A stretch of DNA of 64,000 nucleotides from Bacteroidota bacterium (GCA_035635475.1 DASQAZ010000036.1:13066-77065), one strand, 5' to 3'. Numbered from the stretch's first letter, positions 7,433-24,807 are shown. Translations and numbers: made by a program. The notes: generated by a model not told the origin, from the sequence alone.

Positions 7433-7458
7433 TGGCCGGACCACTGAAAGGATTCTAA

Positions 7459-8241: not shown

Positions 8242-8253
8242 AAGAGCATTCCT

Positions 8254-9983: not shown

Positions 9984-10786
9984 ACCTCAGAACTCCTCAG
10001 CCGCGATCGATCTTCCTCCTGGGCACCCGCGTTGACAACATCGACGAATGCACCGCGCTTCGCATGGCGATTGGGTTTGCCGCCCATCGTGACGGTCTGC
10101 CTGCCCGAACGGTGTGTTTTACCAACGTTCACACCATCTGTGAGGCGAGGCGCGACCGTACATTGATGCATTGCGTTAATCTCGCGGATCTGGTTCTGCC
10201 CGACGGGAGCGGATTGAAAATCGCCGGCCGGATTTTTGGCACCCCCATCCGCGAAAACCTCAATGGAACCGACTTTACACCCAAAGTTCTCGATGCCGCG
10301 CAGCAGAACGGCCTCAGCGTTTATCTTCTCGGCGCCCAGCTGGGAAGGGTGGTCTCGTGCAGGGCAAACCTTCTGAGGCAATACCCGAATTTAAAGATCG
10401 TGGGACTGCATCACGGCTATTTCACTGCGGATGATGAACAGGATGTCATCCGGGACATCAATGCGAAGAAGCCGGATATTCTCCTTGTTGCGCTCGGCAC
10501 CCCACGACAGGAAAAATGGATTTCGAAAAATGCAAGATGCCTGAACGTCGGAGTCTGCCTCGCGGTGGGGGGGCTATTCGACTTTCTCTCCGGCACCGTC
10601 GAACGCGCCCCGGCCTGGATGCGGCGGGCGGGAATTGAATGGATCTTCCGTCTCCTTCAGGAACCGCGGCTGAAATGGAAACGGGTGTTTCTCGAAATCC
10701 CGATGTTCCTGGCCCTGGTGATCGCCAAACGGATTGTTCCGCGGAAGCTCCGGATGCTTCATGATCGAAGGGTAGCGCTCCGATGA
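9980..10786 (+). CDS. WecB/TagA/CpsF family glycosyltransferase (GT26)
   Basis: Family blocks seen: LPDGSGL, NGTDF, YLLGA, LVALGTPRQEKW, AVGGLFDFLSG..ERAPAWMRRAGIEWIFRLLQEPRLKWKR. ATGA overlap with the upstream gene. Confidence 0.9.
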   Translation: MNLRTPQPRSIFLLGTRVDNIDECTALRMAIGFAAHRDGLPARTVCFTNVHTICEARRDRTLMHCVNLADLVLPDGSGLKIAGRIFGTPIRENLNGTDFTPKVLDAAQQNGLSVYLLGAQLGRVVSCRANLLRQYPNLKIVGLHHGYFTADDEQDVIRDINAKKPDILLVALGTPRQEKWISKNARCLNVGVCLAVGGLFDFLSGTVERAPAWMRRAGIEWIFRLLQEPRLKWKRVFLEIPMFLALVIAKRIVPRKLRMLHDRRVALR

Positions 10787-12282: not shown

Positions 12283-13538
12283 GAATTCTGCACCTGATAC
12301 CTTACTCCCCCATTCCCCCCACCTTCGGGGGAGCCCTGCGCAACTATCACCTCCTGAAGCACATGGCGGCGAACCACGATGTGACCGTGCTGTTATTCGG
12401 TACGCCCGAGGATGCCGACTCGGTTGCCGGGGGTTTTCATCTGCCGGGCGACCGCGTCCGGGTCGTACGAAAGTCCTGGATCCGAACCCGGTGGCGGCTC
12501 GGGCAAATGTATGCAATGGCAACCCCTTACAGTTTTTTCCATCTCATGATCGGGCGATCGGGCAGGATGCAGGAGGCGATCGACGAGGTGCTTGCCGCCG
12601 GGGAGTTCGACATCGTGCAGACTGAATTCACGCCGATGGGGTGTTACAAGCTAAGGACCTCGGCGGTGAAAATCCTGGACGCCCACAATGTAGAGTACCA
12701 GAATCACCTCCGGATGTCCGTGCACGCGAACTCCCTGATCAGACGGCTCTGGTACAGGCGTGAGACCTATTTGCTGAAAAGGGAAGAGACGCGGGCCTGC
12801 CGGCAGCACGATGCCGTGTTTGCAACATCCGCCCGTGATCTGGAACTTCTGGAGAAACTCTCGCCGGGCGTTCCGAAATTCGTCATCCCCAACGGCGTCG
12901 ATGCATCATACTTTAAGGCAGCCGACCAGACTCCGGCATCGCCCTCGCTCGTATTCACGGGGATGATGGCGTACGTTCCAAATTCCGACGGGATGTTGTA
13001 TTTCTTGGACGAAATCTTTCCGCTGATCAAAAAGAAGGTTCCCGGGGTAACAATCACCATCGTCGGAAACCGCCCGCCCCGGGAATTATTAAGGAGGGCC
13101 TCGGACGATGTCATCGTCACCGGTTACGTGGACGACGTTCGCCCGTTCGTCGAGCGCGCCGCCGTCTACGTCGCCCCGCTGCGCATCGGGAGCGGAACAC
13201 GATTGAAAATTCTGGAAGCTTTATCTATGAAGAAACCGGTCGTCACGACCAGCATCGGGTGCGAGGGGCTGGACGTCGTCGACGGGGAATCGGCTCTCGT
13301 TGCCGATGAGCCCGAAGCGTTTGCCTGCCGCGTGATCGAGCTGCTTCATAGCGACCGGTTGCGCCGGAAATTGATGCGAACCGGATCTGAGCTGGTGCGG
13401 GAAAAGTACGATTGGCGCATCGTGCACAAGCGGCTCGATGAGGCCTACTGCGAAGTCCTGCGCAGCGCGCGCATCCCGGCCGGCGCGGACGCGGATCGAG
13501 ATCGTCTCGAGTACCGTGAGCCGGCTTACGTAACGTAA
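12279..13538 (+). CDS. Glycosyltransferase family 4 (GT-B, group 1)
   Basis: C-terminal block VTGYVDDVRPFVERAAVYVAPLRIGSGTRLKILEALSMKKPVVTTSIGCEGLDVVDGESALV includes the E-x7-E motif. Confidence 0.9.
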   Translation: MRILHLIPYSPIPPTFGGALRNYHLLKHMAANHDVTVLLFGTPEDADSVAGGFHLPGDRVRVVRKSWIRTRWRLGQMYAMATPYSFFHLMIGRSGRMQEAIDEVLAAGEFDIVQTEFTPMGCYKLRTSAVKILDAHNVEYQNHLRMSVHANSLIRRLWYRRETYLLKREETRACRQHDAVFATSARDLELLEKLSPGVPKFVIPNGVDASYFKAADQTPASPSLVFTGMMAYVPNSDGMLYFLDEIFPLIKKKVPGVTITIVGNRPPRELLRRASDDVIVTGYVDDVRPFVERAAVYVAPLRIGSGTRLKILEALSMKKPVVTTSIGCEGLDVVDGESALVADEPEAFACRVIELLHSDRLRRKLMRTGSELVREKYDWRIVHKRLDEAYCEVLRSARIPAGADADRDRLEYREPAYVT

Positions 13539-13551: not shown

Positions 13552-14451
13552 ATGAAAGGAGAATTCTGCGTGGCAACAGATGGAAGCGTGGTGTACACCG
13601 ATCACCGCGCCATGCCCTCAATCAAAGTGTTGATGTACCACCGGATCGTAGACGACGGAAGCCTTGCACAACGGCACTGGACCTGCGTCCACGTGAACAA
13701 TCTCGCTCAACAGCTTCACATGCTCGATCGCTGCGGGTTTACCACGATCACCTTCAACGATTACCGGCTCTCCCTGTCCGGCGAGCTGAATTTGCCGCGA
13801 AAACCCGTCGTTATTAGTTTCGACGACGGGTATCTCGACACCTACCGGCTGGCGTTTCCCGTCTTGCGGGAACTGGGAATGAAAGCCGTCGTCTTCGTTG
13901 TCGCCGGCAAGAATGTCAAGTCCAACATATGGGACCGGCATCTCGGGGTTCCGCCGGCCCCGCTTCTTGAGCCCAGACATCTGGTGGAGATGTCGGGGGA
14001 GGGGATCGAAATCGGTTCTCATTCCCTCACCCATCCGCGCCTGACCGATCTGCCGGACGATGCAGCGTGGGAAGAGCTATCCCACTCGAAGCTTCTTCTC
14101 GAGATGCTCCTTGACTCCGCGATTAACAGCATCTCGTATCCCTACGGGCTCGTCAATCAGAATATCAAGAACATGGCCCGGGAAGTCGGCTATACGATCG
14201 GGTGCGGCGTCTCCAGCGGTCCCGTACGCTTCGGCGACGACCTGCTCGAAGTGCGGAGGACTACTATTAAAAATACGACCGGACCTCTGCGGTTCGGATT
14301 GCGGCTGCTTCCGTTCTTCCAACGATATTCCTTTCTCCGGTGGAAAACCTCGCAGGCGCTCTCGAGCCGGGCAACTCCCGCACGCGGGAGGAATCTGGTG
14401 GATATCGCGATGTCGACCGTTCCGGGGAATGGGTTCGATCATGAAACCTGA
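13552..14451 (+). CDS. Polysaccharide deacetylase (NodB/CE4 family)
   Basis: VISFDDGYLDTY (motif 1), GSHSLTHPRL (H-S-x-x-H) and SYPYG are present. A later start at ATG 13612 (MPSIKVLMYHRI) is possible. Confidence 0.85.
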   Translation: MKGEFCVATDGSVVYTDHRAMPSIKVLMYHRIVDDGSLAQRHWTCVHVNNLAQQLHMLDRCGFTTITFNDYRLSLSGELNLPRKPVVISFDDGYLDTYRLAFPVLRELGMKAVVFVVAGKNVKSNIWDRHLGVPPAPLLEPRHLVEMSGEGIEIGSHSLTHPRLTDLPDDAAWEELSHSKLLLEMLLDSAINSISYPYGLVNQNIKNMAREVGYTIGCGVSSGPVRFGDDLLEVRRTTIKNTTGPLRFGLRLLPFFQRYSFLRWKTSQALSSRATPARGRNLVDIAMSTVPGNGFDHET

Positions 14452-15808
14452 CACTCCACAAATGGAAGCCCCGGAATATCAAGACATTGCGGTTCCAACG
14501 CGCGAGCCGGAGCTCGTCACAATGGAGATTGTGCGATCGGAGAATGAGTTCGCCGCGTTGTCTCAATCGTGGGAGCGGCTTACCCAGCTCTCGAAGGCCC
14601 GCATCTACCAGACATTCGACTGGCAGTGGACATGGTGGAGCCATTTCGGGTCAGGACTCGATTTGCACATCATCGCTCTCCGGCACAACGGGGAGATCAT
14701 CGGCCTTGCGCCGTTCTGCGTGGAAACCGGATCTGTCTGGGGAGTTCCGTATCGCCGGTGCCTGAAGCTCGTTGGCTGCAATATTCGAATTAAAGAACCC
14801 TCCGGGATCCCCGTCACGTACGATGTGTCGGACTATCTCGACATCATCATCCACCCGGGATATATCGGCCCGGCGCTGGAGTCGATCGCTCAGTACCTGC
14901 GCGATCACCTCTCGGAATATGATGCGATTGAGTTCACAAATGTGCCTGACGAGAGCCTGATCATGAAGGCGCTGGTTCCGCGGCTGAAAGAAAGCGGCTT
15001 CAGGATTTTGGCCTCGCGCGCGGACGTCTGTCCCCGCCTGAAAGTGCCATCTTCCATAGAGGCGTACCTCCAATCACTGGGGCCGAATGTTCGCCGCCGG
15101 CTTCTCCAGGCAAAGACGGCTGCGAACGGGGGCGGGTTGTTCACGATTGAACGCGCCGAGGGTCCGGCCCTCTGGCCCGGTTCGGTTCGGGAGCTGGCGG
15201 CTCTGCACCAGCAGAGATGGAACCGGATTGGTTATCCGGGGCTTTTTTATGATGCGCGGTTCGGGCGCTTTATCAACGACGTTGTCGGGCGCATGCAGGG
15301 ACGGGGCCGCGTATGGTTGAAAATCGCAACATCGGGCGGAAAGACGGTCGCAGTGCGGCTGGGATTCTGCTTCAATGACGCGTTCTATGACTACCTTTCG
15401 GGTTTCGATGATCAATCCCCCGCCGCGAAGCGCAGGCCGGGTATCGCCCTGCTGCTTTCAATGATCGAAGATGCGAGAGGGTTGAATGCGGAGACTGTCG
15501 ACTTTCTTCGCGGAGACGAAGCGTACAAGTTTGAGATGAGTTCCGAGGCCGCGCACAACTGGAAGGTCACCGCATTTTTGCCGGCGCATGCCTCCATTCC
15601 GCGGGCGATTCTGTCGTTTGTTGACGGGGGAATCCGCTGGTGGTGGAAAGAACGGCTCCTCATGCGCGTCCAATCTCAACAATATCCTTTCCCCTCTTCG
15701 GTCATGAGGTATTTCCGCTTCCGAACAGAGTCGGTTGCCCGGAAAATCGGGCGTGCGGCAGGCCGAGGTCCCGGATTCAAATCGGAGAAACTCAATGTTC
15801 ATGCATGA
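14441..15808 (+). CDS. CelD/BcsL/FemAB-like GNAT acyltransferase (Acetyltransf_6-type), paralog 1
   Basis: ATG 14441 is in frame with track ORF 14060, whose first 127 codons overlap the deacetylase. Family blocks: FDWQWTWWSHFG...LHIIALRHNGEIIGLAPF and GFCFNDAFYDYLSGFD...VDFLRGDEAYK. Confidence 0.8.
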   Translation: MKPDTPQMEAPEYQDIAVPTREPELVTMEIVRSENEFAALSQSWERLTQLSKARIYQTFDWQWTWWSHFGSGLDLHIIALRHNGEIIGLAPFCVETGSVWGVPYRRCLKLVGCNIRIKEPSGIPVTYDVSDYLDIIIHPGYIGPALESIAQYLRDHLSEYDAIEFTNVPDESLIMKALVPRLKESGFRILASRADVCPRLKVPSSIEAYLQSLGPNVRRRLLQAKTAANGGGLFTIERAEGPALWPGSVRELAALHQQRWNRIGYPGLFYDARFGRFINDVVGRMQGRGRVWLKIATSGGKTVAVRLGFCFNDAFYDYLSGFDDQSPAAKRRPGIALLLSMIEDARGLNAETVDFLRGDEAYKFEMSSEAAHNWKVTAFLPAHASIPRAILSFVDGGIRWWWKERLLMRVQSQQYPFPSSVMRYFRFRTESVARKIGRAAGRGPGFKSEKLNVHA

Positions 15809-18785
15809 AGAGGTTCACTCGCATCTGAACTATGTGCTGGATCCGCCGGCCTCCGCAGAAGCTGGGATCCGGCGGGAGAACTCGCGCCCCTGGTCGAGAA
15901 ATCTGCTGCACTCATTCCGGGAGCTCCTGGATCACCTGCGGGATCTGGCCGCCGCTTCTATGAATTCAAAAAACGACCGGAAAATCACCCTTGACGGGTA
16001 TCTAACTACCTGTGCTCTCTGGCAGATTCTCGAGGATTTCCTTCACCGGGGATTGCTGCGGGTCGAGCTCAGAATGAAGACGGCTGCTCGCGAGGCCGTG
16101 AATCCCGTTCGGAGCGCCCGCTCCCCGAGGAACTGGATTCAGGTACTACAAAGGGGCATCCGGTCTCAGGCGTTGCTCATTCCATCGAGAGCGGCCGATG
16201 TTCTTGCCGCTTCCGCCGTCGAATTGCGCATGAGACTGCGCGAGTCCGATTTAGCGCGAGCCTCCGAAATTTTGAAGAGCGCGGTCGAAAGGATGGCTTC
16301 AGAGGCCGTCGCATCCGAACAATGCACGGGGTCCGGGGAGCAATCAGATGCACCATTGCAAGAGGCCGCACAAACGGTGCTGGAACAATCCTACCCGGAC
16401 ACGCTCCTGAATCGCGTGCTGAAAATTCCGGCATGTTTCAAGGATTTCGACTGCCACCCGGATGACTGCGGGGTCTTCGCAAACAAGATCGCGGAAACTT
16501 TTGAAGACCGCCACGAACCACTCACCGTCCTTGGAATCAGGACTTCCGGCTCGTATCTGGCTCCGCTCTGTGCAGCCTACCTGCGGAAGGAGGGATTCAG
16601 AGATGTCACGATTGCGACCATCCGGCCCGATGTGAGTCTCCTTTCCCCGGAGCAGAGCCTGCTTATCGGGAGAGCGCAGGCGGGAACGATTTTAATCATC
16701 GACGACCCACCCTTCACCGGCGACGGCCTTCTCTCGTGCATCAGGATGCTGGAACGCATGGGAATAGCGGCGAACAGGATTATTGCGCTTGTCTTTGAAG
16801 ATCCGGAGGCGCCGTTCTTTAGCGTAGATGAAATGACGGGCACTTCAACCTGGAAGGAACTCCGCTCCCGCATCCGGACGATTCTGTTGCCGAAGCGCGA
16901 GTGGCGGATCCGGAGAGTCACCGGTATGCTGCAGATGGGCGGAGCGGATATGAGAATCCTGAAACTCCACGGCTTTTCTGTCCAAGAAGCGCCCGCAGGA
17001 ACGGGCGATCCGGCATCGGCTGGGGGCGGCCAACGTTTTCGCGTGCGGCGGGCGCGGCGTCATGAAAATTTAAAGCTTGATAGTACGCTCGAAACTCCGG
17101 GAGGGGCCGCCTCTTCCTCGTTTATTGCCAGGGGAACCGGGTTCGGCTGGTTTGAAGATCATGCGCTGGAAATCGCGCGCCGAATACCGGATTTCGCGCC
17201 GCCGGTCTCGCGGCTTGCAGAGGGCCTGCATCTCAGATCATGGATCGAGGGCCGCACCGCCGCGGAAAACCCGGCTCTCTGTGATGAACAGTTCGTCCGG
17301 CATGCTGCCAGATATGTCGCGGAACGATCCCGGGCCCTCCCCCTGGACAATGAGGGGAATCGCGACCTGGAAGACCGGAAGACAGGATGGCACCTGCTGG
17401 CGCGGACGTTCGGGCGGAGTTATCTGATGCTGCGCTCTTTTTCCTACTATGCGCTGCGCAAACAATTGTCGAGAATATGCCTCGGCGCGCCCCGGGCCGT
17501 GATCGACGGCCGGATGGGACCTGCCGAGTGGATCGTGCCGGCCGGCGGAGGGCACCCGCTCAAGCTGGACTTTGATGAACATGCATTCGACAGGAGCGAC
17601 CTCTCGGTTTTCGATCCCGTCATCGATCTGGCGGGCTTCTCGGTCGAGCACCGGCTCCCGGACCATCTGGAAAAAACGTTGATGATCGAATATATCAGCC
17701 GGAGCGGCGACACCGGAGCGTGGGAACGACTCCCAACATGCAAAATGATCGTGTGTCTTTCGGCGCAATCAGAGCTCGAATCACAGGCATTCGAAGGCGC
17801 TGCCGATCCGGCAAGGGTGACGCTCGATTTATTAGAACTTGAGCGGGTTATGTCAAAAACCGCAAACGGGTTTCTCTCGGAGGCATTCCGCCTTCAGGAG
17901 GCGCGCTGGGAGTCGGACGAAATGGTTGCGATCGATGTCGACGGCGTGCTCGAGGACAGCATCCTGGGTTTCAGCGCGATGTCGCCGGCGGCCGTGAAGG
18001 CAGTTCGTACGCTGGCGCGGCACGGTTTTCAGATTGTGCTCGCCACGGGCCGAAGTTTACCGGACATGATCGAGCGAGCGCGGATCCTGCGCCTCCGGGG
18101 CGGCATCGCAGAGTACGGATCGGTGGTCTGGGACCGGGGGCGCGATGCAACGGCCACTCTCGTGACCCCGCGGGAAATGGAACAACTTCGGAAACTCCGT
18201 GCGATTCTCGCCGATCAAGACGGGGTTTCCATCGACCCCGGTCATGAATATTCCGTCCGCGTTTTTCAGCCGGCAAAGGGCTCCCGCCGGCGGGTTGCCG
18301 CTTTCTGGCTTGAACAGATCCTGCGGCGGTGGAAGCTCGACGAAGTGCGCGTCATCAAGGGAAACTCGGTCACAGACGTGGTCGGAAAGAGCGTGAACAA
18401 GGGCGCCGGACTCCTGTACCTGAGGCGGATCTTCAATGCGCGCGAGGTTCATGCGGTCGGGGACACTCACGAAGATGTGCCGCTCTTCCGCGCCGCGGAT
18501 CATTCCTACGCGCCGGCAAGTGCGGGACCCGGCCTTGCGAGGGAGATGAGGGACGGCGATCTCTTCGTTGCGAAAGGAAAGACGGAGCGCGGGCTGTTCC
18601 AGATCGCGATGAGGATCGCCCACGGAAGAAGCCGCCGTTGTCCGCTCTGCGCGGGCGCCGATCAATGGAGCGAACCCGTTTCGATTCTCGTGCAGGCGCT
18701 GGGTCTGAGAGACAGGAGCCGTTTTCAAAAAATGTCCGATCTGATCGGCCACGACATGCTCAAGAATTTCTATGCCAGCCTTTAA
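15795..18785 (+). CDS. Three-domain fusion protein: phosphoribosyltransferase-like + protein-kinase/APH-like + HAD-IIB phosphatase-like
   Basis: PRTase block (nt ~16437-16814): LTVLGIRTSGSYLAP...GTILIIDDPPFTGDGL. Kinase-like block (nt ~17097-17774): FIARGTGFGWFEDH...VIDGRMGPAEWIV...LKLDFDEHAF...DPVIDLAGF. HAD block (nt ~17916-18539): VAIDVDGVLED, IVLATGRS, SVNKG, AVGDTHEDVPLF. Start taken as ATG 15795 or 15801, inside track ORF 15735. Confidence 0.7.
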   Translation: MFMHEEVHSHLNYVLDPPASAEAGIRRENSRPWSRNLLHSFRELLDHLRDLAAASMNSKNDRKITLDGYLTTCALWQILEDFLHRGLLRVELRMKTAAREAVNPVRSARSPRNWIQVLQRGIRSQALLIPSRAADVLAASAVELRMRLRESDLARASEILKSAVERMASEAVASEQCTGSGEQSDAPLQEAAQTVLEQSYPDTLLNRVLKIPACFKDFDCHPDDCGVFANKIAETFEDRHEPLTVLGIRTSGSYLAPLCAAYLRKEGFRDVTIATIRPDVSLLSPEQSLLIGRAQAGTILIIDDPPFTGDGLLSCIRMLERMGIAANRIIALVFEDPEAPFFSVDEMTGTSTWKELRSRIRTILLPKREWRIRRVTGMLQMGGADMRILKLHGFSVQEAPAGTGDPASAGGGQRFRVRRARRHENLKLDSTLETPGGAASSSFIARGTGFGWFEDHALEIARRIPDFAPPVSRLAEGLHLRSWIEGRTAAENPALCDEQFVRHAARYVAERSRALPLDNEGNRDLEDRKTGWHLLARTFGRSYLMLRSFSYYALRKQLSRICLGAPRAVIDGRMGPAEWIVPAGGGHPLKLDFDEHAFDRSDLSVFDPVIDLAGFSVEHRLPDHLEKTLMIEYISRSGDTGAWERLPTCKMIVCLSAQSELESQAFEGAADPARVTLDLLELERVMSKTANGFLSEAFRLQEARWESDEMVAIDVDGVLEDSILGFSAMSPAAVKAVRTLARHGFQIVLATGRSLPDMIERARILRLRGGIAEYGSVVWDRGRDATATLVTPREMEQLRKLRAILADQDGVSIDPGHEYSVRVFQPAKGSRRRVAAFWLEQILRRWKLDEVRVIKGNSVTDVVGKSVNKGAGLLYLRRIFNAREVHAVGDTHEDVPLFRAADHSYAPASAGPGLAREMRDGDLFVAKGKTERGLFQIAMRIAHGRSRRCPLCAGADQWSEPVSILVQALGLRDRSRFQKMSDLIGHDMLKNFYASL

Positions 18786-20136
18786 CAATCATCCCGGTGG
18801 ACAGCCGATGCTGAAAAAAGTGATCCTACCGGCACTGAAGGGCGAGCCGCGTTCACTGAACGGGCACTGCGAGCTCCATGTCGTGCGCACCGAAGTGGAA
18901 CTGGATGCCCTGGAGGAGCGGTGGAATGGCCTCATGAGTTGTTCCGATGTCTCCGCATTCCAGACGTTCGAGTGGCTGAGGACCTGGTGGCGGTACTTCG
19001 GGGCTAATCGGAGGCTCCACTCGCTCATTGTAACGGAAGAGGGCCGGACAATCGGCATCGCCCCGATGTTTATAGAAGACGCGAGAATCCTGGGCGTCAG
19101 GGTTGCGACGCGGCTGAGATTCATGGGCTGCGGCATCTCGGACTATTGTGATTTCATCATCGCCCGGGGGAAAGAGGAACTCGTCCTCCATGCGTTTGCG
19201 CAGTATCTGTTCGCACACTCCGGCGATTGGGATATTTTCGAAATTGCCGACGTGAACGAGCGCGCCCAGCTTTATAAAATGCTTCCGAGGCTCCTCCGTG
19301 AACGCGGCATGGGCGTCTACACGTACCAGGGGAATGTCTGTCCGAGCCTCGCGCTGCCCGATTCCTGGGATGACTTTCTCGCCGGACTCGGCCAGAAGAT
19401 GCGGCATCATCTGAAAAAGAAGAGGGAGATGCTGAATCTTCAGTACCGGACGGAGGTGGAAATCTTCAAATCGGCCTCGGACGATATCGACCTCGCCGTC
19501 AACGAATTCATTCAGATCCATGAACGGCGGTGGAAGGGCCTCGGGTTCCGGAGCGCCTTTGACGACGAGGTCCACCGGGAGTTCCACTATGAGGTCGCCC
19601 GGAGGATGGCTCGCCGCGGCTGGCTGAGGCTCTTCTTCCTCAAGGTGGACGGGCGGAGGGTCGCGGTGAGTTTTGACTTCAATTTCAACAAAAGAATTCA
19701 TGTCTATCTCTCCCATGCCTGCGGACCGGAGGAGATCATGAAGTGCAGTCCGGGTTTCCTGATCCGCTGTATTGCGATCGATCGCGGCATAGCGGAGGGC
19801 ATGGAAATCTACGACCTCCTGAGAGGAAATGAGGCCTACAAATATGAGGAGCTCAAGTGTGTCCGTAGCGAAAACTGGCTCGTGAGGGGAGTGGGATGCT
19901 CCCGCGAGTCACGGGCCCGGTTCCGGATCTTTCTCGTGCGCGAGTTCGTGATCAAGAGCTTCGATCGGATTCGCCGGGAATACCACGAGTTCAGGCGGTT
20001 CGTGATCACCAAGAAACCTTCAACGATGGCGAGTCTCCGTTTTTTCCGATCCCAACTCGTTCTTCTCTACAAATTGGCAATAAATTACTGTGAACGCTTC
20101 TTTTTCAATGAAAGCCGACACCATGCGCCGAGATGA
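18772..20136 (+). CDS. CelD/BcsL/FemAB-like GNAT acyltransferase, paralog 2
   Basis: FQTFEWLRTWWRYFG...LHSLIVTEEGRTIGIAPM and FDFNFNKRIHVYLSH...IYDLLRGNEAYK follow the same pattern as 14441-15808. Confidence 0.8.
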   Translation: MPAFNNHPGGQPMLKKVILPALKGEPRSLNGHCELHVVRTEVELDALEERWNGLMSCSDVSAFQTFEWLRTWWRYFGANRRLHSLIVTEEGRTIGIAPMFIEDARILGVRVATRLRFMGCGISDYCDFIIARGKEELVLHAFAQYLFAHSGDWDIFEIADVNERAQLYKMLPRLLRERGMGVYTYQGNVCPSLALPDSWDDFLAGLGQKMRHHLKKKREMLNLQYRTEVEIFKSASDDIDLAVNEFIQIHERRWKGLGFRSAFDDEVHREFHYEVARRMARRGWLRLFFLKVDGRRVAVSFDFNFNKRIHVYLSHACGPEEIMKCSPGFLIRCIAIDRGIAEGMEIYDLLRGNEAYKYEELKCVRSENWLVRGVGCSRESRARFRIFLVREFVIKSFDRIRREYHEFRRFVITKKPSTMASLRFFRSQLVLLYKLAINYCERFFFNESRHHAPR

Positions 20137-21451
20137 AGAGCCGCGGAGGGCGGTCATTCTCTCGGGCGGCGGATGGCCGGGCGCGTACGACATCGTGCGC
20201 GCGCTGGGCCTGGCGGGAGTTAAGTCTATTGTCGTCTCCTCCCAGCCGGACGACATCGCATTCCATTCCCGCTACGTTGAGGGAAGAATCAATCTGCCGG
20301 AGTTTCAGCCGTGCCAATACGGAAGAATCGCAGACGCTCTGGAAGCGATCGGAACTTCGGAGCGGGAGAAGCCGGTGCTTTTTTATGTAGGCGACGCAGA
20401 GGTTGCATTTGTGCAACAGTTTCGCGATCGGCTGCGGGAATACTTCCGGTTCCTCCTGCCGGAGGATCGCCTCACCACGACGCTCCTCAACAAGTCGTTG
20501 TTTTACGAGTTCGCGCGGGGATGCGATCTTCCCGTTCCGAGCGCGGAGTCGTTCTCCGATGTGCGCGACCTGCGGAAAAGAATCGGCGCCGTCGCGTTTC
20601 CCTGCATCGTGAAGCCTTCGTTCAACCAGGACTGGTTCTGGAAGAATCGGGAGGAACGCGACCGGTTGCCGTCATACAAGCAGGCGCTGCGCCGATTCGG
20701 TTCGAAGGATGACCTCCTGGAATTCGCCGACGCCCTCCCCGAGCGGGCTTCCGGGTTTGTGGTTCAATCCTACATCGACGGCGGCGACGATGCGATCACC
20801 AGCTTCCACGGCTACTTTAACGAACAGTCGGAGTGTCTCGGCTACTTCCTGGGCCGTGAGATCCGCACGAATCCTCCCCACACCGGCGAAAGCGCATATT
20901 CGCGCACCATTTACAACGAATCGTTGGCGAAGCGGAGCATCGATTACCTGAGGCGCATCGGCATGCGCGGCATTGTGAAAATCGACTATAAGCTGGATGC
21001 ACGGACGAATGATTTTAAGATGATGGAAATAGAGCCGCACTTTCAATTCTGGCACCTGCTCGGAGCGTACGCCGGGGTAAACCTGCCGCTGATTGCCTAT
21101 CGCCATCAGCGCGATGAGCGGGTAGCGATCTCCGGGAGTTATGCCGACGATCTCCGAATGCTTTATTTCCTCCCGGATATCCGCGCATTTTGGGGCGGAT
21201 ACCGGAAATCCGGCGAGTGGGCGCTGGTCCCATATTTAAAATCGTTCATGAAGAAAAAATACTACCGGGTATTCGATCCGCTCGACCCCTTGCCCTTTGT
21301 TCGTTCCGTCATGGGACTTGGCGGGCGCATCCTCAAACATCTCCCTGTGCGCCTCGCCGCGAAGAGCGGGGCTATTCAGGTGCGAGGAATCCGTCCGCAG
21401 AATGTGATTGTAAGAGAATTACCTCAACTTCATCGGATGAACGAACACTAG
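20090..21451 (+). CDS. ATP-grasp ligase (COG3919-like predicted carboxylate-amine ligase), paralog 1
   Basis: Blocks seen: AVILSGGGWPGAYDIVRALG, FPCIVKPS, VVQSYIDG, GIVKIDYKLD...MMEIEPHF. The track start is GTG 20090. ATG 20108 and ATG 20123 are alternatives, and the upstream gene ends at 20136. Confidence 0.75.
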   Translation: MNASFSMKADTMRRDEEPRRAVILSGGGWPGAYDIVRALGLAGVKSIVVSSQPDDIAFHSRYVEGRINLPEFQPCQYGRIADALEAIGTSEREKPVLFYVGDAEVAFVQQFRDRLREYFRFLLPEDRLTTTLLNKSLFYEFARGCDLPVPSAESFSDVRDLRKRIGAVAFPCIVKPSFNQDWFWKNREERDRLPSYKQALRRFGSKDDLLEFADALPERASGFVVQSYIDGGDDAITSFHGYFNEQSECLGYFLGREIRTNPPHTGESAYSRTIYNESLAKRSIDYLRRIGMRGIVKIDYKLDARTNDFKMMEIEPHFQFWHLLGAYAGVNLPLIAYRHQRDERVAISGSYADDLRMLYFLPDIRAFWGGYRKSGEWALVPYLKSFMKKKYYRVFDPLDPLPFVRSVMGLGGRILKHLPVRLAAKSGAIQVRGIRPQNVIVRELPQLHRMNEH

Positions 21452-21454
21452 AAT

Positions 21455-22813
21455 ATGCAGAACCGATCGGCAAAGAGCGCGGAGGCACTGATCATATCGG
21501 CGGGATGGTCTCCCGGAGCGTACGACATTGCAAGGTCGCTCGGCATGGCCGGAATCCTGAGCCATATCGCTTCTTCGCAGCCCTCGGACATCGGATTTTA
21601 TTCCCGTTATTGCGCGGGACGGTGGATGCTTCCGTGTTTCAAGCCCGAGAATTACGGCGAGATCGTCATACGGCTTCAGAAGCTCAGCTCCGGGTCGGGC
21701 GAGAAGCCGGTGCTCTTCTACGCATCGGACCCTGAACTGTGGTTTGTCTGGAGATACCGCCATCAACTTGAGCCTTTCTACCGTTTTCTGCTGCCTCCCG
21801 ACGATCTGATTGAGAAGCTATTCAACAAGGTGCTGTTCGCAGAGTTCGCCCGCGAGCACGAGCTCCCGATCCCCCGATCGGCTACGCTCCGGCGCCTCGA
21901 AGAGCTTCAGGAGCTCGATGGTGCGATCACCTTTCCCTGTATCGTCAAGCCGGCATACAGCCAGGACTGGATATGGGATACGCCCGAGCAGGAGACCCGA
22001 TTCGGATCATACAAGAAGGCGTTGCGAAGGTTCGATTCAAAAGCCCAGCTTCTGGACTTCTGCGGCGCACTGCCCGAGAGAGAGGCCGGGGTCGTGATTC
22101 AGGAATATATCGACGGGCGGGATGAATCAATCGACAGTTTCCACGGGTATTTCGACAAGCACTCGCGTTGTCTCGGATATTTTCTCGGGCGCAAAATACG
22201 CACCTACCCGCCGCATACGGGCGGGAGTGCCTATGTGCGGACAATCCATAACGAGACTCTCGCCCGATTAAGCGATGAGTATCTTAGACGAATAGGATTC
22301 CAGGGAATCGTGAAAATAGATTACAAATGGGATGACCGGACGAAAGTATTTAATATTCTGGAGATCAATCCTCGTTTCAACCTCTGGGAGCTGCTGGGCG
22401 CTTATGCGGGTGTTAATCTGGCATCGGTGGCCTACCATGACCAGCGCGGAGAGTCGGTGGAGTGGCGGTCATCGTACACCGATGACGCTCGCCTTCTGTA
22501 TGCTAAACAGGATCTTCGGGCGTACTGGACCGGTTATCGGCACACCGGAGAGTGGACGTTCATTTCGTACGTGAGGTCGATGGCGGCGAAGCTTCACTTC
22601 CGCGTCTTCGATCCCAGGGACCCGCTTCCGTTTGTGGTTTCGGCACTGGCATTCCTTCTGAGAAACGGCCTGCGGATGCTCGGAGTGAAAATGAAGGTAC
22701 CCAAGCCGGGTGAGCATGCGTTTATTTCGAGACGGCGGATGAGGGGACAAGCAATTTCTCAAAAGCCGCCCGAGCCTCACGAAGCACAGATCAGGCCGGC
22801 AATGATGGAGTAG
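21455..22813 (+). CDS. ATP-grasp ligase, paralog 2 (tandem duplicate)
   Basis: Colinear with 20090-21451 along the whole length (ALIISAGWSPGAYDIARSLG, FPCIVKPA, VIQEYIDG, GIVKIDYKWD...ILEINPRF). By eye about half of the residues are identical. Confidence 0.8.
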   Translation: MQNRSAKSAEALIISAGWSPGAYDIARSLGMAGILSHIASSQPSDIGFYSRYCAGRWMLPCFKPENYGEIVIRLQKLSSGSGEKPVLFYASDPELWFVWRYRHQLEPFYRFLLPPDDLIEKLFNKVLFAEFAREHELPIPRSATLRRLEELQELDGAITFPCIVKPAYSQDWIWDTPEQETRFGSYKKALRRFDSKAQLLDFCGALPEREAGVVIQEYIDGRDESIDSFHGYFDKHSRCLGYFLGRKIRTYPPHTGGSAYVRTIHNETLARLSDEYLRRIGFQGIVKIDYKWDDRTKVFNILEINPRFNLWELLGAYAGVNLASVAYHDQRGESVEWRSSYTDDARLLYAKQDLRAYWTGYRHTGEWTFISYVRSMAAKLHFRVFDPRDPLPFVVSALAFLLRNGLRMLGVKMKVPKPGEHAFISRRRMRGQAISQKPPEPHEAQIRPAMME

Positions 22814-22847
22814 AGGGTGTGAATCGTCTCATCATCACTGGAGAAGC

Positions 22848-23558
22848 GTGACTGAAGTCGTTGATACTGTTGCGGGTTTGATGAAATTGGAGCGTGAATG
22901 GGACGCGCTGGCGTTGGAATTCCAGAACCCGCTACTCACCCATGAATGGTTTGCCTCCTGCGCGGCGGCGGTGAGCCCTCCCGATGAGCTGAGGATTATT
23001 CTCATCATGGACGAAGAAAAGCTCGTCGCTGCAGCACCAATGGTGATGGTTCGCCGCTGGGGCGTCCGGCGCCTGGAAATTCTCGGGAGCTCGACCCTGC
23101 AGGAACCGAGCACCTTTCTTTTCAGAGATGAAGATTCGCTCAACGAACTCCTGAGGGCGGTCAGGACCGGGGTCTCCGTGCGTGTTGTAAAAGGACAATG
23201 GTCGGACCCGAGGGGAAACGGGCTTGACTGCAGGAGAAACTTCCGCGTCCTGATCGACGCTCTCGCAGGGCGCTGCCCGCATGTGTTCGTCGGTACGCAC
23301 GATCGCCACCTCGCCCGTGAAGCGCTCACGATCCTGCGTGCCTCGGATACGCGGTGTGAACTGGAACAGATGCTCGGACTGCCCTCGATTGTGAAGAGCG
23401 CGGCAGAGCCTCTCGGGATCCCGGTCAGGGTGTATGTTCCCTTCGGCACTCCGTATCTGCCCTACAATATCCGCTACGTTTCGCATCGCCCTGCGATGAT
23501 GGCCTGGGCGCTTAATGGCCTCCTGACAGGGGGGGATTGGAACCAGGGATTGTTGTGA
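22848..23558 (+). CDS. Chimeric ORF: CelD-like N-terminal ~100 aa joined to a proline-dehydrogenase-like C-terminal half barrel; possibly a gene remnant
   Basis: The N-terminus EREWDALALEFQNPLLTHEWF...LRIILIMDEEKLVAAAPMVM matches the pattern of both CelD paralogs. The C-terminus VSVRVVKGQW, VFVGTHDRHL, ELEQMLGLP, IPVRVYVPFGTPYLPYNIRYVSHRP matches ProDH blocks (VRLVKGAY, ATHN, E.Q.L.GM, VR.Y.P.G...YL.RRL.ERP). GTG start. Confidence 0.55.
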   Translation: MTEVVDTVAGLMKLEREWDALALEFQNPLLTHEWFASCAAAVSPPDELRIILIMDEEKLVAAAPMVMVRRWGVRRLEILGSSTLQEPSTFLFRDEDSLNELLRAVRTGVSVRVVKGQWSDPRGNGLDCRRNFRVLIDALAGRCPHVFVGTHDRHLAREALTILRASDTRCELEQMLGLPSIVKSAAEPLGIPVRVYVPFGTPYLPYNIRYVSHRPAMMAWALNGLLTGGDWNQGLL

Positions 23559-23565
23559 AGAGCCG

Positions 23566-24807
23566 GTGACTATGATAACCGCAATCGAAATTGTCCTTCT
23601 TTCTATTCTTGGCCTCCCTCTCTGTTATCTTGCCCTCCTCAGCTTCCTTGCCCTCAATCCGAAACAGCGCCGGAATTCGGGCAATTCCCGCCTGCGCCGA
23701 TTCGCCATCGTCGTGCCCGCACACGACGAGGAGCGGACCATCGATGCAACGCTCCGAAGCCTGCTCGCGATCGATTACCCGCGCCAGATGTACGATCTCG
23801 TCGTCATTGCCGACAACTGCGATGACGGCACCGCTCAAGTTGCGAATCGTCCGGGAGTCCAGGTTCTGGAGAGAAACGATCCCCATCTGCGCGGGAAAGG
23901 TTATGCGCTGCGCTGGGGGTTTGATGCACTGCTCTCATTGTCCCGGTACGACGCTGTCGTTGTCGTGGATGCCGACAGTACCGCCTCCCGGAATTTTCTT
24001 TCGGTCATGAATGATTACCTTGAAACCGGCGCGGAGGCGGTCCAGAGCAGCGACCTGGTCAGGCCGCTCCCCGGGTCCTGGAGTTCGGAGATCGTTCGCA
24101 TCGGCTTTCTGCTCTATAATTACGTGCGGCCGCTCGGCAGGATGGCTCTCGGATGCTCGGCGGGTTTGCGTGGAAACGGCATGTGCTTCGCCGTCGACAC
24201 GCTTCGCCGGGTTCCCTGGGTCGCATTCTCCGTCGCCGAGGATCTCGAGTATGGCCTGGAATTGTTGCTCCGGGGGGTTGGCGTCGTTTTTGCGCCTGAA
24301 GCGGTCGTGATTGCCGCGATGCCTCAGCATGCTGCAAACGCCCGGAGCCAGCGCGCGCGGTGGGAAATGGGCAGATTCCCGCTGGTCAAAAAGTATGCAG
24401 GCCGGCTTCTCCGCACTGCCGCGTACGCACGCTCGTATCGATGTTTCGATGCGTTCATCGATCTTGTCACTCCGCCGCTCGTCAATTTGCTCATGGCCGT
24501 TTCAGCGATGTTCATGATCTCCGTCATCCTGTTGGGGCTCGGCTATTGGGAGCTGGGGCCTGTGATCTGGCTTTGGGCCGGGTTGATGGGGTTGGGGATG
24601 GTACATCTGCTGGTCGGAATTCAGGCCGCCCGGGGGTCTGTGGAAGATCTGAAAGTTCTACTTCATCTTCCCCGGTACGCTTTCTGGAAACTCCTGCTCT
24701 ACGCCGGGATGATCAAAAAGCGCGTGCCAAATGAATGGATTCGCACCCACCGTGAAGCCGGCGACGAGCCGCTTCCGGGGGAACAATCGTCGGGGAGTCC
24801 CGCCTAG
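23566..24807 (+). CDS. Membrane-embedded family 2 glycosyltransferase of the processive-synthase type
   Basis: Blocks seen: FAIVVPAHDEE, VVIADNCDDGT, RGKGYAL, VVVVDADS (DxD), GNGMCF, EDLEYGLEL, QRARWEMG (Q-x-x-RW). One N-terminal and several C-terminal TM helices. Confidence 0.85.
   Translation: MTMITAIEIVLLSILGLPLCYLALLSFLALNPKQRRNSGNSRLRRFAIVVPAHDEERTIDATLRSLLAIDYPRQMYDLVVIADNCDDGTAQVANRPGVQVLERNDPHLRGKGYALRWGFDALLSLSRYDAVVVVDADSTASRNFLSVMNDYLETGAEAVQSSDLVRPLPGSWSSEIVRIGFLLYNYVRPLGRMALGCSAGLRGNGMCFAVDTLRRVPWVAFSVAEDLEYGLELLLRGVGVVFAPEAVVIAAMPQHAANARSQRARWEMGRFPLVKKYAGRLLRTAAYARSYRCFDAFIDLVTPPLVNLLMAVSAMFMISVILLGLGYWELGPVIWLWAGLMGLGMVHLLVGIQAARGSVEDLKVLLHLPRYAFWKLLLYAGMIKKRVPNEWIRTHREAGDEPLPGEQSSGSPA

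Follow-up and report, generated by a model that had tools for sequence, protein, structure and literature searches.

A partly conserved eight-gene cassette beside a Wzx/Wzy core that may tailor a HexNAc-containing glycan in the cytoplasm

The window analysed here, a 64-kb stretch of DNA from a Bacteroidota bacterium taken at its full length, holds eight genes (G1 to G8) that form a real cassette, conserved in part across bacterial phyla and placed after a WecA/Wzx/Wzy/PCP/Wza core. They encode a CE4 deacetylase, two FemX-like GNATs, a 996-aa fusion, two paralogous ATP-grasps, a chimera, and a QxxRW-type GT2. Judged from the sequences, their most likely role is the de-N-acetylation, re-N-acylation and PRPP-derived decoration of a HexNAc-containing glycan in the cytoplasm. 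We put at roughly 45% the probability that the cassette carries out this cytoplasmic tailoring on an undecaprenyl-phosphate-linked glycan exported by the adjacent Wzx/Wzy/PCP/Wza. The tri-domain fusion, G3, represents an enzyme type that is widespread and without any described function. The features are the following:

2052..5671, - strand: divergent unit (Wza, OMP, primer)
2052-3983, - strand: WecA-type priming transferase fused to a CoA_binding_3/WbaP-N-like region
3990-4919, - strand: PorV/PorQ-like OMP
4931-5671, - strand: Wza-type OPX
6098..13538, + strand: Wzx/Wzy core upstream of the cassette, on its strand (Pfam, NCBIfam)
6098-7432, + strand: PCP
7459-8241, + strand: BY-kinase-like P-loop protein
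8283-9983, + strand: Wzy
9980-10786, + strand: WecG/TagA GT26
10783-12282, + strand: Wzx
12279-13538, + strand: GT4
13552..14451, + strand: G1, cytoplasmic CE4 polysaccharide deacetylase, 299 aa
14429..15808, + strand: G2, FemX-like two-lobed GNAT 1, 459 aa
15795..18785, + strand: G3, 996-aa three-domain fusion
16452..16934, + strand: G3 PRTase-like domain, aa ~220-380 (PF00156, profile match to PyrR)
17037..17909, + strand: G3 choline/ethanolamine-kinase or APH-like domain, aa ~415-705 (Foldseek)
17916..18629, + strand: G3 HAD-IIB (Cof-type) phosphatase domain, aa ~708-945 (PF08282, TIGR01484, Foldseek)
18772..20136, + strand: G4, FemX-like GNAT 2, 454 aa (442 aa with a start at 18808)
20090..21451, + strand: G5, ATP-grasp 1
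21455..22813, + strand: G6, ATP-grasp 2
22848..23558, + strand: G7, in-frame deletion chimera
23566..24807, + strand: G8, membrane GT2 of synthase type, 413 aa

The ORFs and their junctions confirm that a same-strand block of eight genes follows a conventional core, as had been read from the sequence alone. All eight ORFs lie on the + strand at 13552-24807, and consecutive genes of the cassette either overlap or lie no more than 34 nt apart. The GT4 gene and G1 are 13 nt apart, G1 overlaps G2 (ATG at 14429) by 23 nt, and G2 overlaps G3 by 14 nt. G3 and G4 overlap by 14 nt, or are separated by 22 nt if G4 starts at 18808, and the 47-nt overlap of G4 and G5 is smaller with a later ATG. The remaining gaps are 3 nt (G5 to G6), 34 nt (G6 to G7), and 7 nt (G7 to G8); a convergent GH47 gene begins 3 nt past the end of G8. 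The upstream genes match the PCP/Wzy/GT26/Wzx/GT4 core described earlier (Pfam, NCBIfam), and their order across 6098..13538 is identical in the loci L002 and L010. The WecA-like primer and the WecG-type GT26 imply HexNAc substrates. No exosortase model matched any scanned ORF of the 64-kb window with Pfam (E <= 0.001-0.01) or any of the 20 ORFs also run with NCBIfam, the ORF at 488-1306 having been scanned with NCBIfam only; the sequence-only reading had likewise noted no exosortase. G1 to G7 have zero TM and zero signal segments, which makes ATP-, PRPP-, and tRNA-dependent steps feasible.

The domain assignments made earlier also hold, including the PRTase/kinase-like/HAD fusion and the CelD-N/ProDH chimera. 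G1 matches PF01522 (1.8e-25) with its catalytic motifs intact (FDDG at aa 90, HSLTH at aa 157, YPYG at aa 196), lacks a signal peptide or TM segment, and resembles the N-terminal domain of PgaB (TIGR03938, 84.6 bits, under the cut-off). With NF050820 it scores 20 bits (cut-off 400), and we rejected it as an HfsH equivalog. G2 and G4, which are 31% identical, match PF13480 (Acetyltransf_6) at 1.7e-24 and 1.3e-20, neither matches PF02388 (FemAB), and FemX was the sole match of their family profile in the PDB (7e-5). Acyl-CoA and aminoacyl-tRNA are both possible donors for PF13480 enzymes. Orthologues of G4 with 58-60% identity occur in Rokubacteria and Bacteroidota MAG loci. The proposed link to PEP-CTERM families fails at this level, with no match of TIGR03019 and a TIGR03006 score of 16 bits for a cut-off of 276.

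G3 comprises an N-terminal helical region, a type-I PRTase-like domain, a choline-kinase/APH-like domain, a HAD-IIB phosphatase, and a C-terminal CxxC tail, and its AlphaFold model has a pLDDT of 82 and a pTM of 0.85. The match to PF00156 (aa 232-333, 1.4e-5) scores 24.9 bits with a cut-off of 26.3, and the model was found in 10 of 24 family members (best 9.9e-8). The profile of the domain matches PyrR (1.9e-4), then HGPRT, APRT, and OPRT, with both loop motifs aligned: the PPi loop G-I-RTSG-SYLAP at aa 249 and the PRPP loop IDDPPFTG at aa 302. The acidic pair of the PRPP loop, the phosphate-binding TG/SG residues, and the RTSG PPi loop are invariant in 24 homologues. The usual nucleophile of type-I PRTases is a nitrogen, not a sugar hydroxyl. 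The middle domain has no Pfam match. In its AlphaFold model (aa 415-705, pLDDT 78.7), Foldseek against the PDB ranks LicA best (4r78, 2.1e-6), along with ethanolamine/choline kinases and APH(3')-Ia (TM 0.5-0.57), and a weak LicA profile match spans the DPxxDLA motif; the hhalign comparison with the neighbouring actinobacterial APH family was not significant. D571 and K590 are invariant, D592 nearly so, but the canonical HxDxxxxN motif (Brenner His/Asn) and the beta3 Lys are not retained, so that this domain may be inactive. The HAD domain (PF08282, 2e-11; TIGR01484, 1.7e-9) keeps all four motifs (D714xD716, S754, K869, GD890xxxD894), and its Foldseek matches are 1kyt, 1wr8, sucrose-phosphatase, and trehalose-6-P phosphatases (1e-10 to 1e-8).

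The paralogous ATP-grasps G5 and G6 (55% identity) have weak Pfam matches, and their family profile retrieves CPSase, biotin carboxylase, RimK, and Ddl from the PDB at 4.6e-10 and weaker. G6 is PRK12767-like, with canonical motifs (K in IVKP, QEY, E-I-N-P-R) and matches to PF15632 (27.9 bits, gathering score 29.1), PF02786, and PF02655. In G5, which is 62% identical to L013:6212-7423, E-I-E-P-H replaces the Mg/catalytic motif E-x-N-x-R, a variant shared by its Rokubacteria orthologue. The chimera G7 is no designed component but, by sequence comparison, the product of an in-frame deletion of about 1.2 kb that joined a third GNAT to a ProDH-like gene. The N-terminus of this third FemX-like GNAT makes up its aa 1-105, and the rest matches the C-terminal half of ProDH (NF045947, 2.1e-8), aa ~89-236 aligning with that half of full-length ProDH-like proteins of ~290 aa. 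Both parent genes are intact and adjacent in the close relative L011 (GNAT3 at 3061-4254, ProDH-like at 4032/4248-4976), to which the two halves are 88.6% and 85% identical (tblastn). The window lacks the DNA of L011 3378-4582 (about 1.2 kb), and the junction lies at about nt 23155-23164 with the microhomology GGGCGGTCAG. G7 is probably a non-functional remnant. G8 matches PF13641 (2.9e-27) and PF13632 (7.8e-16), and has the motifs D at ~aa 53, DAD at 135, QRARW at 262, and ED within aa 216-235. There is one TM segment at its N-terminus, and the hydrophobic segments at its C-terminus would fit about 3-4 TM helices. It is 59% identical to the GT2 adjoining the G3 homologue of L008.

The G3 family is large and unannotated, with 804 clusters at 50% identity and relatives encoded by 211 species genomes. 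Nearly all of its fully flanked loci (49/51) contain glycan-synthesis genes: GT2 in 39/51, CE4 in 33/51, and GNAT in 22/51. Its usual partners across phyla are GT2, CE4, and an APH kinase, with FemX-like GNATs less frequent. Among the 22 loci with such GNATs, 21 also have a CE4, which fits the earlier idea that the polymer is deacetylated and then decorated; overall, we regard that idea as partly supported. Neither CE4 nor GNAT accompanies G3 in 17 of the 51 loci, so that G3 is independent of the deacetylation step, and ATP-grasps of the G5/G6 type occur in 7 of 79 G3 loci. The eight genes are not co-conserved as one unit. CE4, GNATs, G3, and ATP-grasp come together only in Ignavibacteria, Bacteroidota, and Rokubacteria relatives: the order CE4-GNAT1-G3-GNAT2-ATP-grasp is retained in the Bacteroidota MAG L002, L001 from Rokubacteria has it in rearranged form, and in the related L008 CE4 and three GNAT copies occur with an AMP-binding enzyme, GT2, and G3. 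G3 homologues are also found naturally fused to GNAT1 (P0002, Rokubacteria) and to a Wzx-like protein (P0006), which ties G3 to the lipid-linked glycan.

In the pathway that we favour, the WecA-like enzyme would prime with HexNAc-1-P and, going by their families, GT26, GT4, and the QxxRW GT2 would lengthen the unit. The signal-less CE4, with its intact active-site motifs, would remove the N-acetyl from a HexNAc, and the amine thus freed would be acylated anew, most plausibly by aminoacyl transfer, by the two FemX-like GNATs, of which there were three before the deletion that formed G7. The ATP-grasp pair may lengthen or amidate the side chain through ATP-dependent amide bonds, the weakest link of the scheme. 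The type-I PRTase of G3 would move ribose-5-phosphate from PRPP onto the glycan or the new side chain, its HAD-IIB domain would then strip the 5-phosphate, and the degenerate choline-kinase-like domain could bind the acceptor or add a phosphate. These G3 steps are modelled on the PRTase+HAD logic that forms the invariant core of the characterised glycan ribofuranosyltransferases (gPRT-PRP; PMC11127046, PMC11294581, PMC12096443) and of Ter-linked modules (PMC11994780). For the pairing of CE4 with a Fem-like GNAT, HfsH/HfsK offers a precedent from genetics (PMC5362036).

The full D, DxD, ED, QxxRW signature of G8 and its TM helices mean that the cassette might serve a separate polymer. In this somewhat unlikely case, it would be a self-contained synthase-dependent pathway. 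G8 would both polymerise and translocate a HexNAc polymer similar to PNAG or chitin, which CE4 would deacetylate in part and which would receive its decoration from the GNATs, ATP-grasps, and G3; the neighbouring Wzx/Wzy core would serve a different polymer or provide shared export parts. CE4 and GT2 are found jointly with G3 in 32/51 loci and a Wzx-like gene in 11/51, the 15-kb contig L008 has no Wzx/Wzy, and the likeness of the CE4 to PgaB is accompanied by a weak match of G8 to PgaC/IcaA. However, PgaB is periplasmic whereas G1 has no signal peptide, the proximity of the cassette to GT4 on the strand of Wzx/Wzy recurs in relatives, and one G3 homologue is joined to a Wzx-like protein. The closest named model of G8 is EpsU (NF041865, 264.7 bits, cut-off 700), a GT2 of exopolysaccharide biosynthesis. 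The EPS of M. xanthus is made via the Wzx/Wzy pathway.

There are three further readings. It is quite unlikely that G3, rather than being a phosphoribosyltransferase, serves the FemX-like enzymes as a scaffold or specificity factor, with its PyrR-like domain binding RNA (e.g., aminoacyl-tRNA) or a nucleotide, its pseudokinase binding glycan or lipid, and the HAD alone being catalytic. Among solved structures, PyrR proteins, which bind RNA, come closest to the PRTase domain, the motifs of the kinase-like domain are degenerate, and the GNAT1-G3 fusion occurs naturally; but the PRPP- and PPi-loop residues are invariant, 17/51 loci have no GNAT beside G3, and an intact HAD implies a phosphorylated intermediate made by some other activity. 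It is likewise improbable that an ethanolamine- or serinol-like amino-alcohol is phosphorylated, joined by ATP-grasp in amide linkage to the carboxylate of a uronic or amino acid, and dephosphorylated by the HAD, as in C. jejuni. In structure the middle domain comes closest to choline/ethanolamine kinases, which would suit this route, and the amine substrates of the C. jejuni glucuronamides are phosphorylated forms. The precedent is the HS:2 capsule, where the enzymes that attach serinol or ethanolamine to glucuronic acid as an amide include the ATP-dependent amidoligase in the C-terminal domain of Cj1438 and the HAD phosphatase Cj1435, which dephosphorylates the product (PMC12096443). Yet G5/G6 show no homology to Cj1438C (hhalign probability 0.1%) and cannot be placed in its family, ATP-grasps are found at 7/79 G3 loci only, the kinase catalytic motif is incomplete, and the conserved PRTase domain is left unexplained. 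Finally, it is highly improbable that the cassette makes a nucleoside-like small molecule that diffuses, of the sort proposed for Ter-linked modules, and is co-located with EPS genes without further connection. PRTase, HAD, and ATP-grasp are the components of such modules (PMC11994780), and G6 is a near-threshold match to ATPgrasp_Ter. Against this, G3 is fused to GNAT and Wzx-like proteins, 49/51 G3 loci are glycan loci, PRTase_2 and PRTase_3 do not match G3, and the ORFs scanned in the window include no ter genes and no CitE-like TIM barrel.

The predicted cytoplasmic tailoring of a lipid-linked glycan can be compared with several known systems. No locus with a chemically defined product was found to match the block, but the statement in the sequence-only reading that no characterised pathway corresponds was too strong, since HfsH/HfsK, the gPRT-PRP ribofuranosyltransferases, and Cj1438C/Cj1435 are analogous, if non-homologous. 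G2 and G4 share their enzyme class with FemX/A/B, the tRNA-dependent enzymes of the peptidoglycan side chain, and Aslfm is an ATP-grasp D-aspartate ligase; by prediction, enzymes of both classes form a branch, amide-linked to a free amine of a lipid-linked glycan precursor, in the cytoplasm, the acceptor being lysine there and, as predicted, a de-N-acetylated sugar here. PEP-CTERM/XrtA EPS loci also have a deacetylase and a FemAB-like protein, and the best models of the core genes are XrtA-associated (pepcterm_ChnLen, 172 bits; pepcterm_TyrKin, 91; stp1 GT4, 238), all under cut-offs; with these scores, no TIGR03019 match, and no exosortase in the ORFs scanned, we rejected membership of that family. 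Ter-operon-linked modules have enzyme classes in common with the cassette, PRTase and HAD being constant and ATP-grasp and TIM barrel optional (PMC11994780), whereas the context here is glycan synthesis and not stress response. The earlier Ter link and family membership were both set aside: ATPgrasp_Ter is below its gathering score in G6 and has no match in G5, and the searches for PRTase_2, PRTase_3, and ter genes among the scanned ORFs were negative. The HS:2 pair Cj1438C/Cj1435 resembles the cassette in ATP-dependent amide ligation on a capsule sugar followed by HAD dephosphorylation (PMC12096443). In the Caulobacter crescentus holdfast, a cytoplasmic CE4 and a GNAT act in a Wzx/Wzy polysaccharide pathway; the closest solved relatives of HfsK are Fem proteins, and the proposed logic is that it acylates the amines exposed by HfsH (PMC5362036). 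That system is without the PRTase/kinase-like/HAD fusion, the ATP-grasp pair, and multiple tandem GNATs. The gPRT-PRP enzymes (T. composti 7SHG, Salmonella STM0726, the M+C domains of C. jejuni Cj1432, and the Hib capsule enzyme) combine, as G3 does, a PRPP-type transferase and a HAD phosphatase in one polypeptide of a polysaccharide locus, and transfer ribose-5-P to a glycan before dephosphorylation (PMC11127046, PMC11294581, PMC12096443). G3 was rejected as a member of this family, having no detectable homology to Cj1432C and no 7SHG among its PDB profile matches. Its PRTase is of the classical type-I, closest to PyrR, HGPRT, and APRT, its domain order is reversed, its HAD is of the Cof-type IIB, and a choline-kinase-like domain lies in between.

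The window carries a real EPS-tailoring cassette that is conserved in part across genomes. Eight + strand ORFs fill positions 13552-24807 and are tightly packed, as the sequence-only reading had described. Adjacent genes share 14-47 nt or lie 3-34 nt apart, the first gene (G1) starts 13 nt past the GT4 gene of the upstream core, and a convergent GH47 gene begins 3 nt past the last one. HMM searches bore out the domain labels that had been given to the eight proteins. The core comprises PCP, a BY-kinase-like protein, Wzy, a WecG-type GT26, Wzx, and GT4, with Wza, a PorV-like outer-membrane protein, and a WecA-type priming enzyme on the opposite strand. A promoter and terminator scan of positions 5500-25200 gave counts at the level of shuffled sequence and is uninformative on operon structure. 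The closest genome match is a soil Ignavibacteria MAG (92% identity over G3), and the presence of a T9SS-tail protein and a PorV-like gene in the window is consistent with it.

Features of the window
2052-3983, - strand: priming enzyme
3990-4919, - strand: PorV/PorQ-family outer-membrane protein, flanked by the Wza-type exporter and the priming transferase
13552-24807, + strand: the cassette, with G1 (CE4 deacetylase), G2 (FemX-like GNAT 1), G3 (996-aa PRTase/kinase-like/HAD fusion), G4 (FemX-like GNAT 2), G5 and G6 (ATP-grasps 1 and 2), G7 (GNAT/ProDH-like chimera), and G8 (QxxRW-type GT2)
20090-21451, + strand: G5
24811-26175, 35898-45781, 51852-55491, and 61996-63861: glycan-degrading enzymes, densely set around the EPS locus
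26735-29095, - strand: 786-aa protein
32895-34573, - strand: XhoI-type restriction endonuclease (PF04555, 1.8e-89) and N6/N4 DNA methylase
45766-50274, - strand: oxidative pentose-phosphate operon
55398-58631: T9SS-sorted Laminin_G/PKD protein

The priming enzyme is an unusual chimera of a WecA/MraY-type PNPT domain (aa 22-349; TIGR02380, 127 bits) and a CoA_binding_3/WbaP-type N-terminal region (aa 395-611, aligned to TIGR03025 positions 2-214); no match reached as far as the C-terminal half of the PHPT models, which contains their catalytic domain. The PorV/PorQ-family protein matches NF033709 at 65.7 bits, below the cut-off. The mannoside- and glycan-degrading set includes GH47, GH5-like, GH38-like, GH3, GH130, GH2 beta-mannosidase, and GH94-like enzymes. 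The sole match of the 786-aa protein, which has no Pfam match, is a glucosamine-6-phosphate deaminase-like region at aa ~200-393 (PRK02122, 177 bits, below the cut-off). The restriction-modification genes sit in the one part of the window that is low in GC (0.49 versus ~0.57 elsewhere) and are probably a horizontally acquired island. The pentose-phosphate operon encodes 6PGD, 6-phosphogluconolactonase, G6PD, and ribose-5-phosphate isomerase A (RpiA). We considered it as a supply of ribose-5-P/PRPP for the cassette and set it aside: it lies 21 kb beyond the cassette end and is most likely housekeeping.

The deacetylase G1 belongs to CE4 (PF01522, 1.8e-25, 89.7 bits) and keeps the metal-binding and catalytic motifs FDDG, HSLTH, and YPYG. 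The absence of a detectable signal peptide in G1 and of hydrophobic segments in G2 to G7 places the tailoring enzymes in the cytoplasm. G2 and G4 are Acetyltransf_6 GNATs (1.7e-24 and 1.3e-20) that share 31% identity. A profile of 12 GNATs from the window and related loci matched a single solved structure, FemX (7e-5), and did so within the C-terminal lobe. PF02388 hit no protein of the window, G4 reached 16.3 bits on FemAB_like (threshold 27), its one NCBIfam match was a weak one to BspF, and G2 matched 0 NCBIfam families.

G5 and G6 are both ATP-grasps, 55% identical to each other. Their profile retrieved carbamoyl-phosphate synthetase (CPSase), biotin carboxylase, RimK/LysX, Ddl, and cyanophycin synthetase from the PDB (4.6e-10), which by profile is a generic set of carboxylate-amine ligases and carboxylases. 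The motifs of G6 are canonical (IVKP, IQEYI, EINPR). G5 keeps the ATP-binding Lys and the Q/E-x-Y hinge and has EIEPH in place of E-x-N-x-R, a variant shared with its Rokubacteria orthologue (L013:6212-7423). The paralogues may form a catalytic/non-catalytic pair.

G7, which the sequence-only reading had counted as a component of the cassette, turned out to be a deletion scar. It joins a GNAT-like N-terminus to a ProDH-like C-terminal half. In a close relative, on the metagenomic contig L011 (~87.5% DNA identity to the window), both parents are intact between ATP-grasp 2 and the GT2: a third FemX-like GNAT of 397 aa and a ProDH-like gene of ~290 aa. G7 aa 1-105 are 88.6% identical to the N-terminus of the former, and aa 89-236 are 85% identical to the C-terminus of the latter. 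The window aligns to L011 positions 1639-3377 and 4573-6324, and positions 3378-4582 are absent from it, although the deleted length is inexact because of an N gap in L011. The ends of the two alignments share 10 bp, at an imperfect GGGCnnTCAG microhomology, and the reading frame is kept across the junction. With half a GNAT lobe and half a TIM barrel, the product is most likely inactive; it is identical in three public contigs. Ancestrally, the cassette comprised nine genes, of which five were amide-forming. With 0 occurrences in 79 related loci, the ProDH-like gene is lineage-specific, and members of its family turn up in varied, unrelated settings. These short proteins of ~280-300 aa (L011 4032-4976, P0028-P0095) are named 'proline dehydrogenase' by the sources, mostly with faint PF01619 support, and in the Ignavibacteria relative one of them is embedded in the EPS cassette. 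A 236-aa Rokubacteria ORF following an ATP-grasp has the length of G7 and was rejected as its counterpart, being part of a second, diverged ATP-grasp.

The most interesting component is G3, a member of a large, unnamed tri-domain family dedicated to glycan loci. An AlphaFold model built from 24 homologues is confident (pLDDT 82, pTM 0.85), and together with Foldseek and HMM evidence it upholds, at the fold level, the earlier call of a PRTase-kinase-HAD fusion. The PRTase-like domain (aa ~220-380) scores 24.9 bits on PF00156 against a cut-off of 26.3, and the model matched 10 of the 24 homologues (best 9.9e-8). The domain profile retrieved PyrR (1.9e-4), then HGPRT, APRT, and OPRT. Two invariant strings, G-x-RTSG-xYLAP (RTSG at aa 249) and DDPPx[ST]G (DDPPFTG at aa 303), align to the PPi and PRPP loops in the PyrR match. 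At the other end, the Cof-type HAD-IIB domain (aa ~708-945) scores 44.5 bits on PF08282 (cut-off 20.9) and falls just under the TIGR01484 cut-off (38.1 versus 41.8 bits). It matches 1kyt and 1wr8 in Foldseek (TM to target 0.79-0.85), and all four of its motifs (D714xD716, S754, K869, and GD890xxxD894) are intact and conserved in the 24 homologues. The helical N-terminal region and the C-terminal CxxC tail had no match.

Since HAD-IIB matches swamped the Foldseek search with the whole protein, the middle of G3 (aa ~415-705) was modelled on its own (pLDDT 78.7). The model predicts a bilobal kinase fold, with LicA, ethanolamine kinase, choline kinases, and APH(3') as matches (2e-6 to 5e-5, TM 0.5-0.57). 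A weak profile match to LicA spans the DPxxDLA motif, and no Pfam family matched, PF01636 included. D571 and K590 are invariant and D592 is kept in ~90%. The His and Asn of the Brenner motif (HxDxxxxN) and the beta3 Lys are not conserved, which makes kinase activity doubtful. An hhalign comparison with the true APH family encoded next to actinobacterial homologues was not significant; the kinase-like call draws on structure and one short motif.

We then examined the distribution of G3. A word-indexed search gave 25 clusters of relatives, and a full profile search gave 804 representative clusters (E<=1e-30, 50% identity), mostly full length. Relatives occur in 211 species genomes, from Actinomycetota (Streptomyces, Nocardia, Amycolatopsis, Pseudonocardia, Kitasatospora, Rhodococcus, Terrabacter), Chloroflexota, Dormibacterota, Terriglobia, Rokubacteria, and Ignavibacteria/Bacteroidota. 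Among the culturable carriers are Streptomyces sp. NBC_00133 (L050), Amycolatopsis orientalis DSM 43388 (L026), Pseudonocardia adelaidensis JCM 18302 (L045), and Terrabacter terrae JCM 14283 (L069). Near relatives retain the layout seen in the window. In a Bacteroidota MAG the gene order agrees with it from PCP to ATP-grasp. A Rokubacteria MAG encodes GT4, a GNAT1-G3 fusion, GNAT2, two ATP-grasps, a sulfatase, CE4, and WecG. An Ignavibacteriales-type contig carries CE4, DegT, three GNAT copies, an AMP-binding enzyme, GT2 (59% identical to G8), G3, and GT4. We counted co-occurring genes within ±10 kb of the 79 best G3 loci with family HMMs built from seeds. These replaced an all-versus-all clustering of ORFs, dropped because of shadow ORFs in high-GC genomes.

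Genes found within ±10 kb of G3 in the 51 loci with full flanks (GNAT and GT2 counts are probably underestimates)
Any glycan gene: 49/51
GT2: 39/51
APH kinase: 36/51 (median 1.3 kb from G3, often immediately downstream)
CE4: 33/51
GH16: 24/51
FemX-like GNAT: 22/51
GNAT and CE4 together: 21/51
Neither CE4 nor GNAT: 17/51
G5/G6-type ATP-grasp: 4/51

These counts show a tight coupling of CE4 and GNAT, mark G3 as a glycan-locus enzyme in its own right, and make the ATP-grasp pair an occasional add-on (7 of all 79 loci, including Streptomyces sp. NBC_00133). A check of co-conservation had been proposed in the sequence-only reading; by these counts, the block is modular rather than a single eight-gene unit. 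In Actinomycetota, an ~800-aa protein adjoins the G3 homologue downstream (e.g., L060 12424-14847, L042 12454-15003, L007 12745-15168); its first ~540 aa drew no match in Pfam, and it ends in a canonical APH kinase domain. Genes for GH16 and for PLC-type phosphoesterases often lie nearby there as well.

We tentatively favour, with a probability of about 0.45, a cytoplasmic tailoring line with an Und-PP-linked, HexNAc-containing unit as its predicted substrate; the case for HexNAc comes from the WecA-type primer and the WecG-type GT26. CE4 would expose an amine, the Fem-like GNATs would re-acylate it, and the ATP-grasps would add further amide-linked residues. A PRPP-derived (phospho)ribosyl group would be added by G3 and dephosphorylated by its HAD domain. 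The sequence-only reading had inferred a polymer deacetylated and then decorated in this manner, which is reasonable and unproven. A physical tie of G3 to the lipid-linked glycan stage comes from two natural fusions, one with GNAT1 (P0002, L001 590-4843, 1417 aa, Rokubacteria) and one with a Wzx-like Polysacc_synt domain (P0006, L004 10001-14101, 1366 aa). Next to this physical tie, the idea that the cassette makes a diffusible nucleoside-like product seems very improbable.

The features of G8 bring in another reading. It is a GT2 (PF13641, 2.9e-27) with D ~53, DAD 135, ED within aa 216-235, and QRARW 262, one TM segment at the N-terminus, and hydrophobic stretches at the C-terminus that would fit ~3-4 helices. 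Motifs and helices are those of a synthase-type GT2, predicted to be processive. Its best named model is M. xanthus EpsU (NF041865), at 264.7 bits against a cut-off of 700, and by this score it is a relative of EpsU rather than an equivalog. A separate synthase-dependent polymer, for which these motifs speak, is rather unlikely beside the Wzx/Wzy core. The fold matches of G3 to choline and ethanolamine kinases recall an amino-alcohol kinase/amidoligase/phosphatase route, as in the C. jejuni glucuronamide pathway; with the kinase residues degenerate, we consider it improbable. A G3 that serves as a scaffold for tRNA-dependent transfer has similarly poor odds. Literature searches covering the gene combination, PF13480, and the tRNA-dependent aminoacylation of EPS turned up no characterised equivalent.

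The tailoring line admits a bolder form, which we regard as distinctly unlikely. G3 would represent a second class of PRPP-dependent glycan-modifying enzymes, of independent evolutionary origin (type-I PRTase, choline-kinase-like module, and HAD-IIB), widespread in Actinomycetota, Chloroflexota, Dormibacterota, and Ignavibacteria/Rokubacteria relatives. Here, with the deacetylase, Fem-like transferases, and ATP-grasp ligases, it would build a ribosylated and/or peptide-branched ('peptidoglycan-style') EPS side chain. A decoration route of this kind has not been described. Should the tailoring line be right, an undescribed means of decorating surface polysaccharides would be common to bacteria of several soil phyla, among them culturable Streptomyces, Amycolatopsis, Nocardia, and Pseudonocardia. 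Should it be wrong, what remains is an ordinary EPS cluster carrying accessory enzymes. The G3 family has a fixed architecture and ~800 clusters at 50% identity, with neither name nor function assigned. Defining its chemistry would give glycobiology a new PRPP- or phosphate-based modification route, provide a testable biochemical model for the long-unsolved pairing of CE4 with Fem-like GNATs (HfsH/HfsK type), and improve the annotation of hundreds of genomes.

The links to the PEP-CTERM and Ter-linked families suggested from the sequence did not hold. No exosortase (XrtA/EpsH) model matched the ORFs scanned across the 64-kb window (Pfam; 20 ORFs also with NCBIfam), although one may be encoded beyond it, the FemAB-like model TIGR03019 had no match, and G1 scored 16.1 bits on the TIGR03006 deacetylase model (cut-off 276.2), which sets the cassette apart from the PEP-CTERM/XrtA accessory set. 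It is not a Ter-linked module either: on ATPgrasp_Ter (PF15632) G6 scored 27.9 bits against a gathering score of 29.1 and G5 had no match, PRTase_2/3 matched neither G3 nor 23 homologues (E<=0.1), and the ORFs scanned in the window included no ter genes. With the gPRT-PRP family, G3 shares a HAD domain with its catalytic Asp in the same polypeptide, here of the Cof-type IIB subfamily. Homology to gPRT was not found. The look-alike strings 'ARDGY' and 'CCGTGE' had prompted us to consider gPRT (Cj1432C) as a hidden relative, rejected at an hhalign probability of 0.1% (G3 PRTase-domain profile versus Cj1432 residues ~574-914); 7SHG was absent from the PDB profile matches of the domain (E<=10) and from the best 50 Foldseek matches. 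For STM0726, an enzyme of the gPRT-PRP family, a 5-phosphoribosyl intermediate has been trapped with the D14A mutant. Nor do the cassette proteins belong with the Cj1438C amidoligase or the EpsU and HfsH equivalogs. The cassette is a member of none of the systems tested and works like several of them. Both the characterised glycan ribofuranosyltransferases (PMC11127046, PMC11294581, PMC12096443) and the Ter-linked module (PMC11994780) have PRTase plus HAD as their constant core, and the pairing of CE4 with a Fem-like GNAT has a genetic precedent in HfsH/HfsK of the Caulobacter holdfast (PMC5362036).
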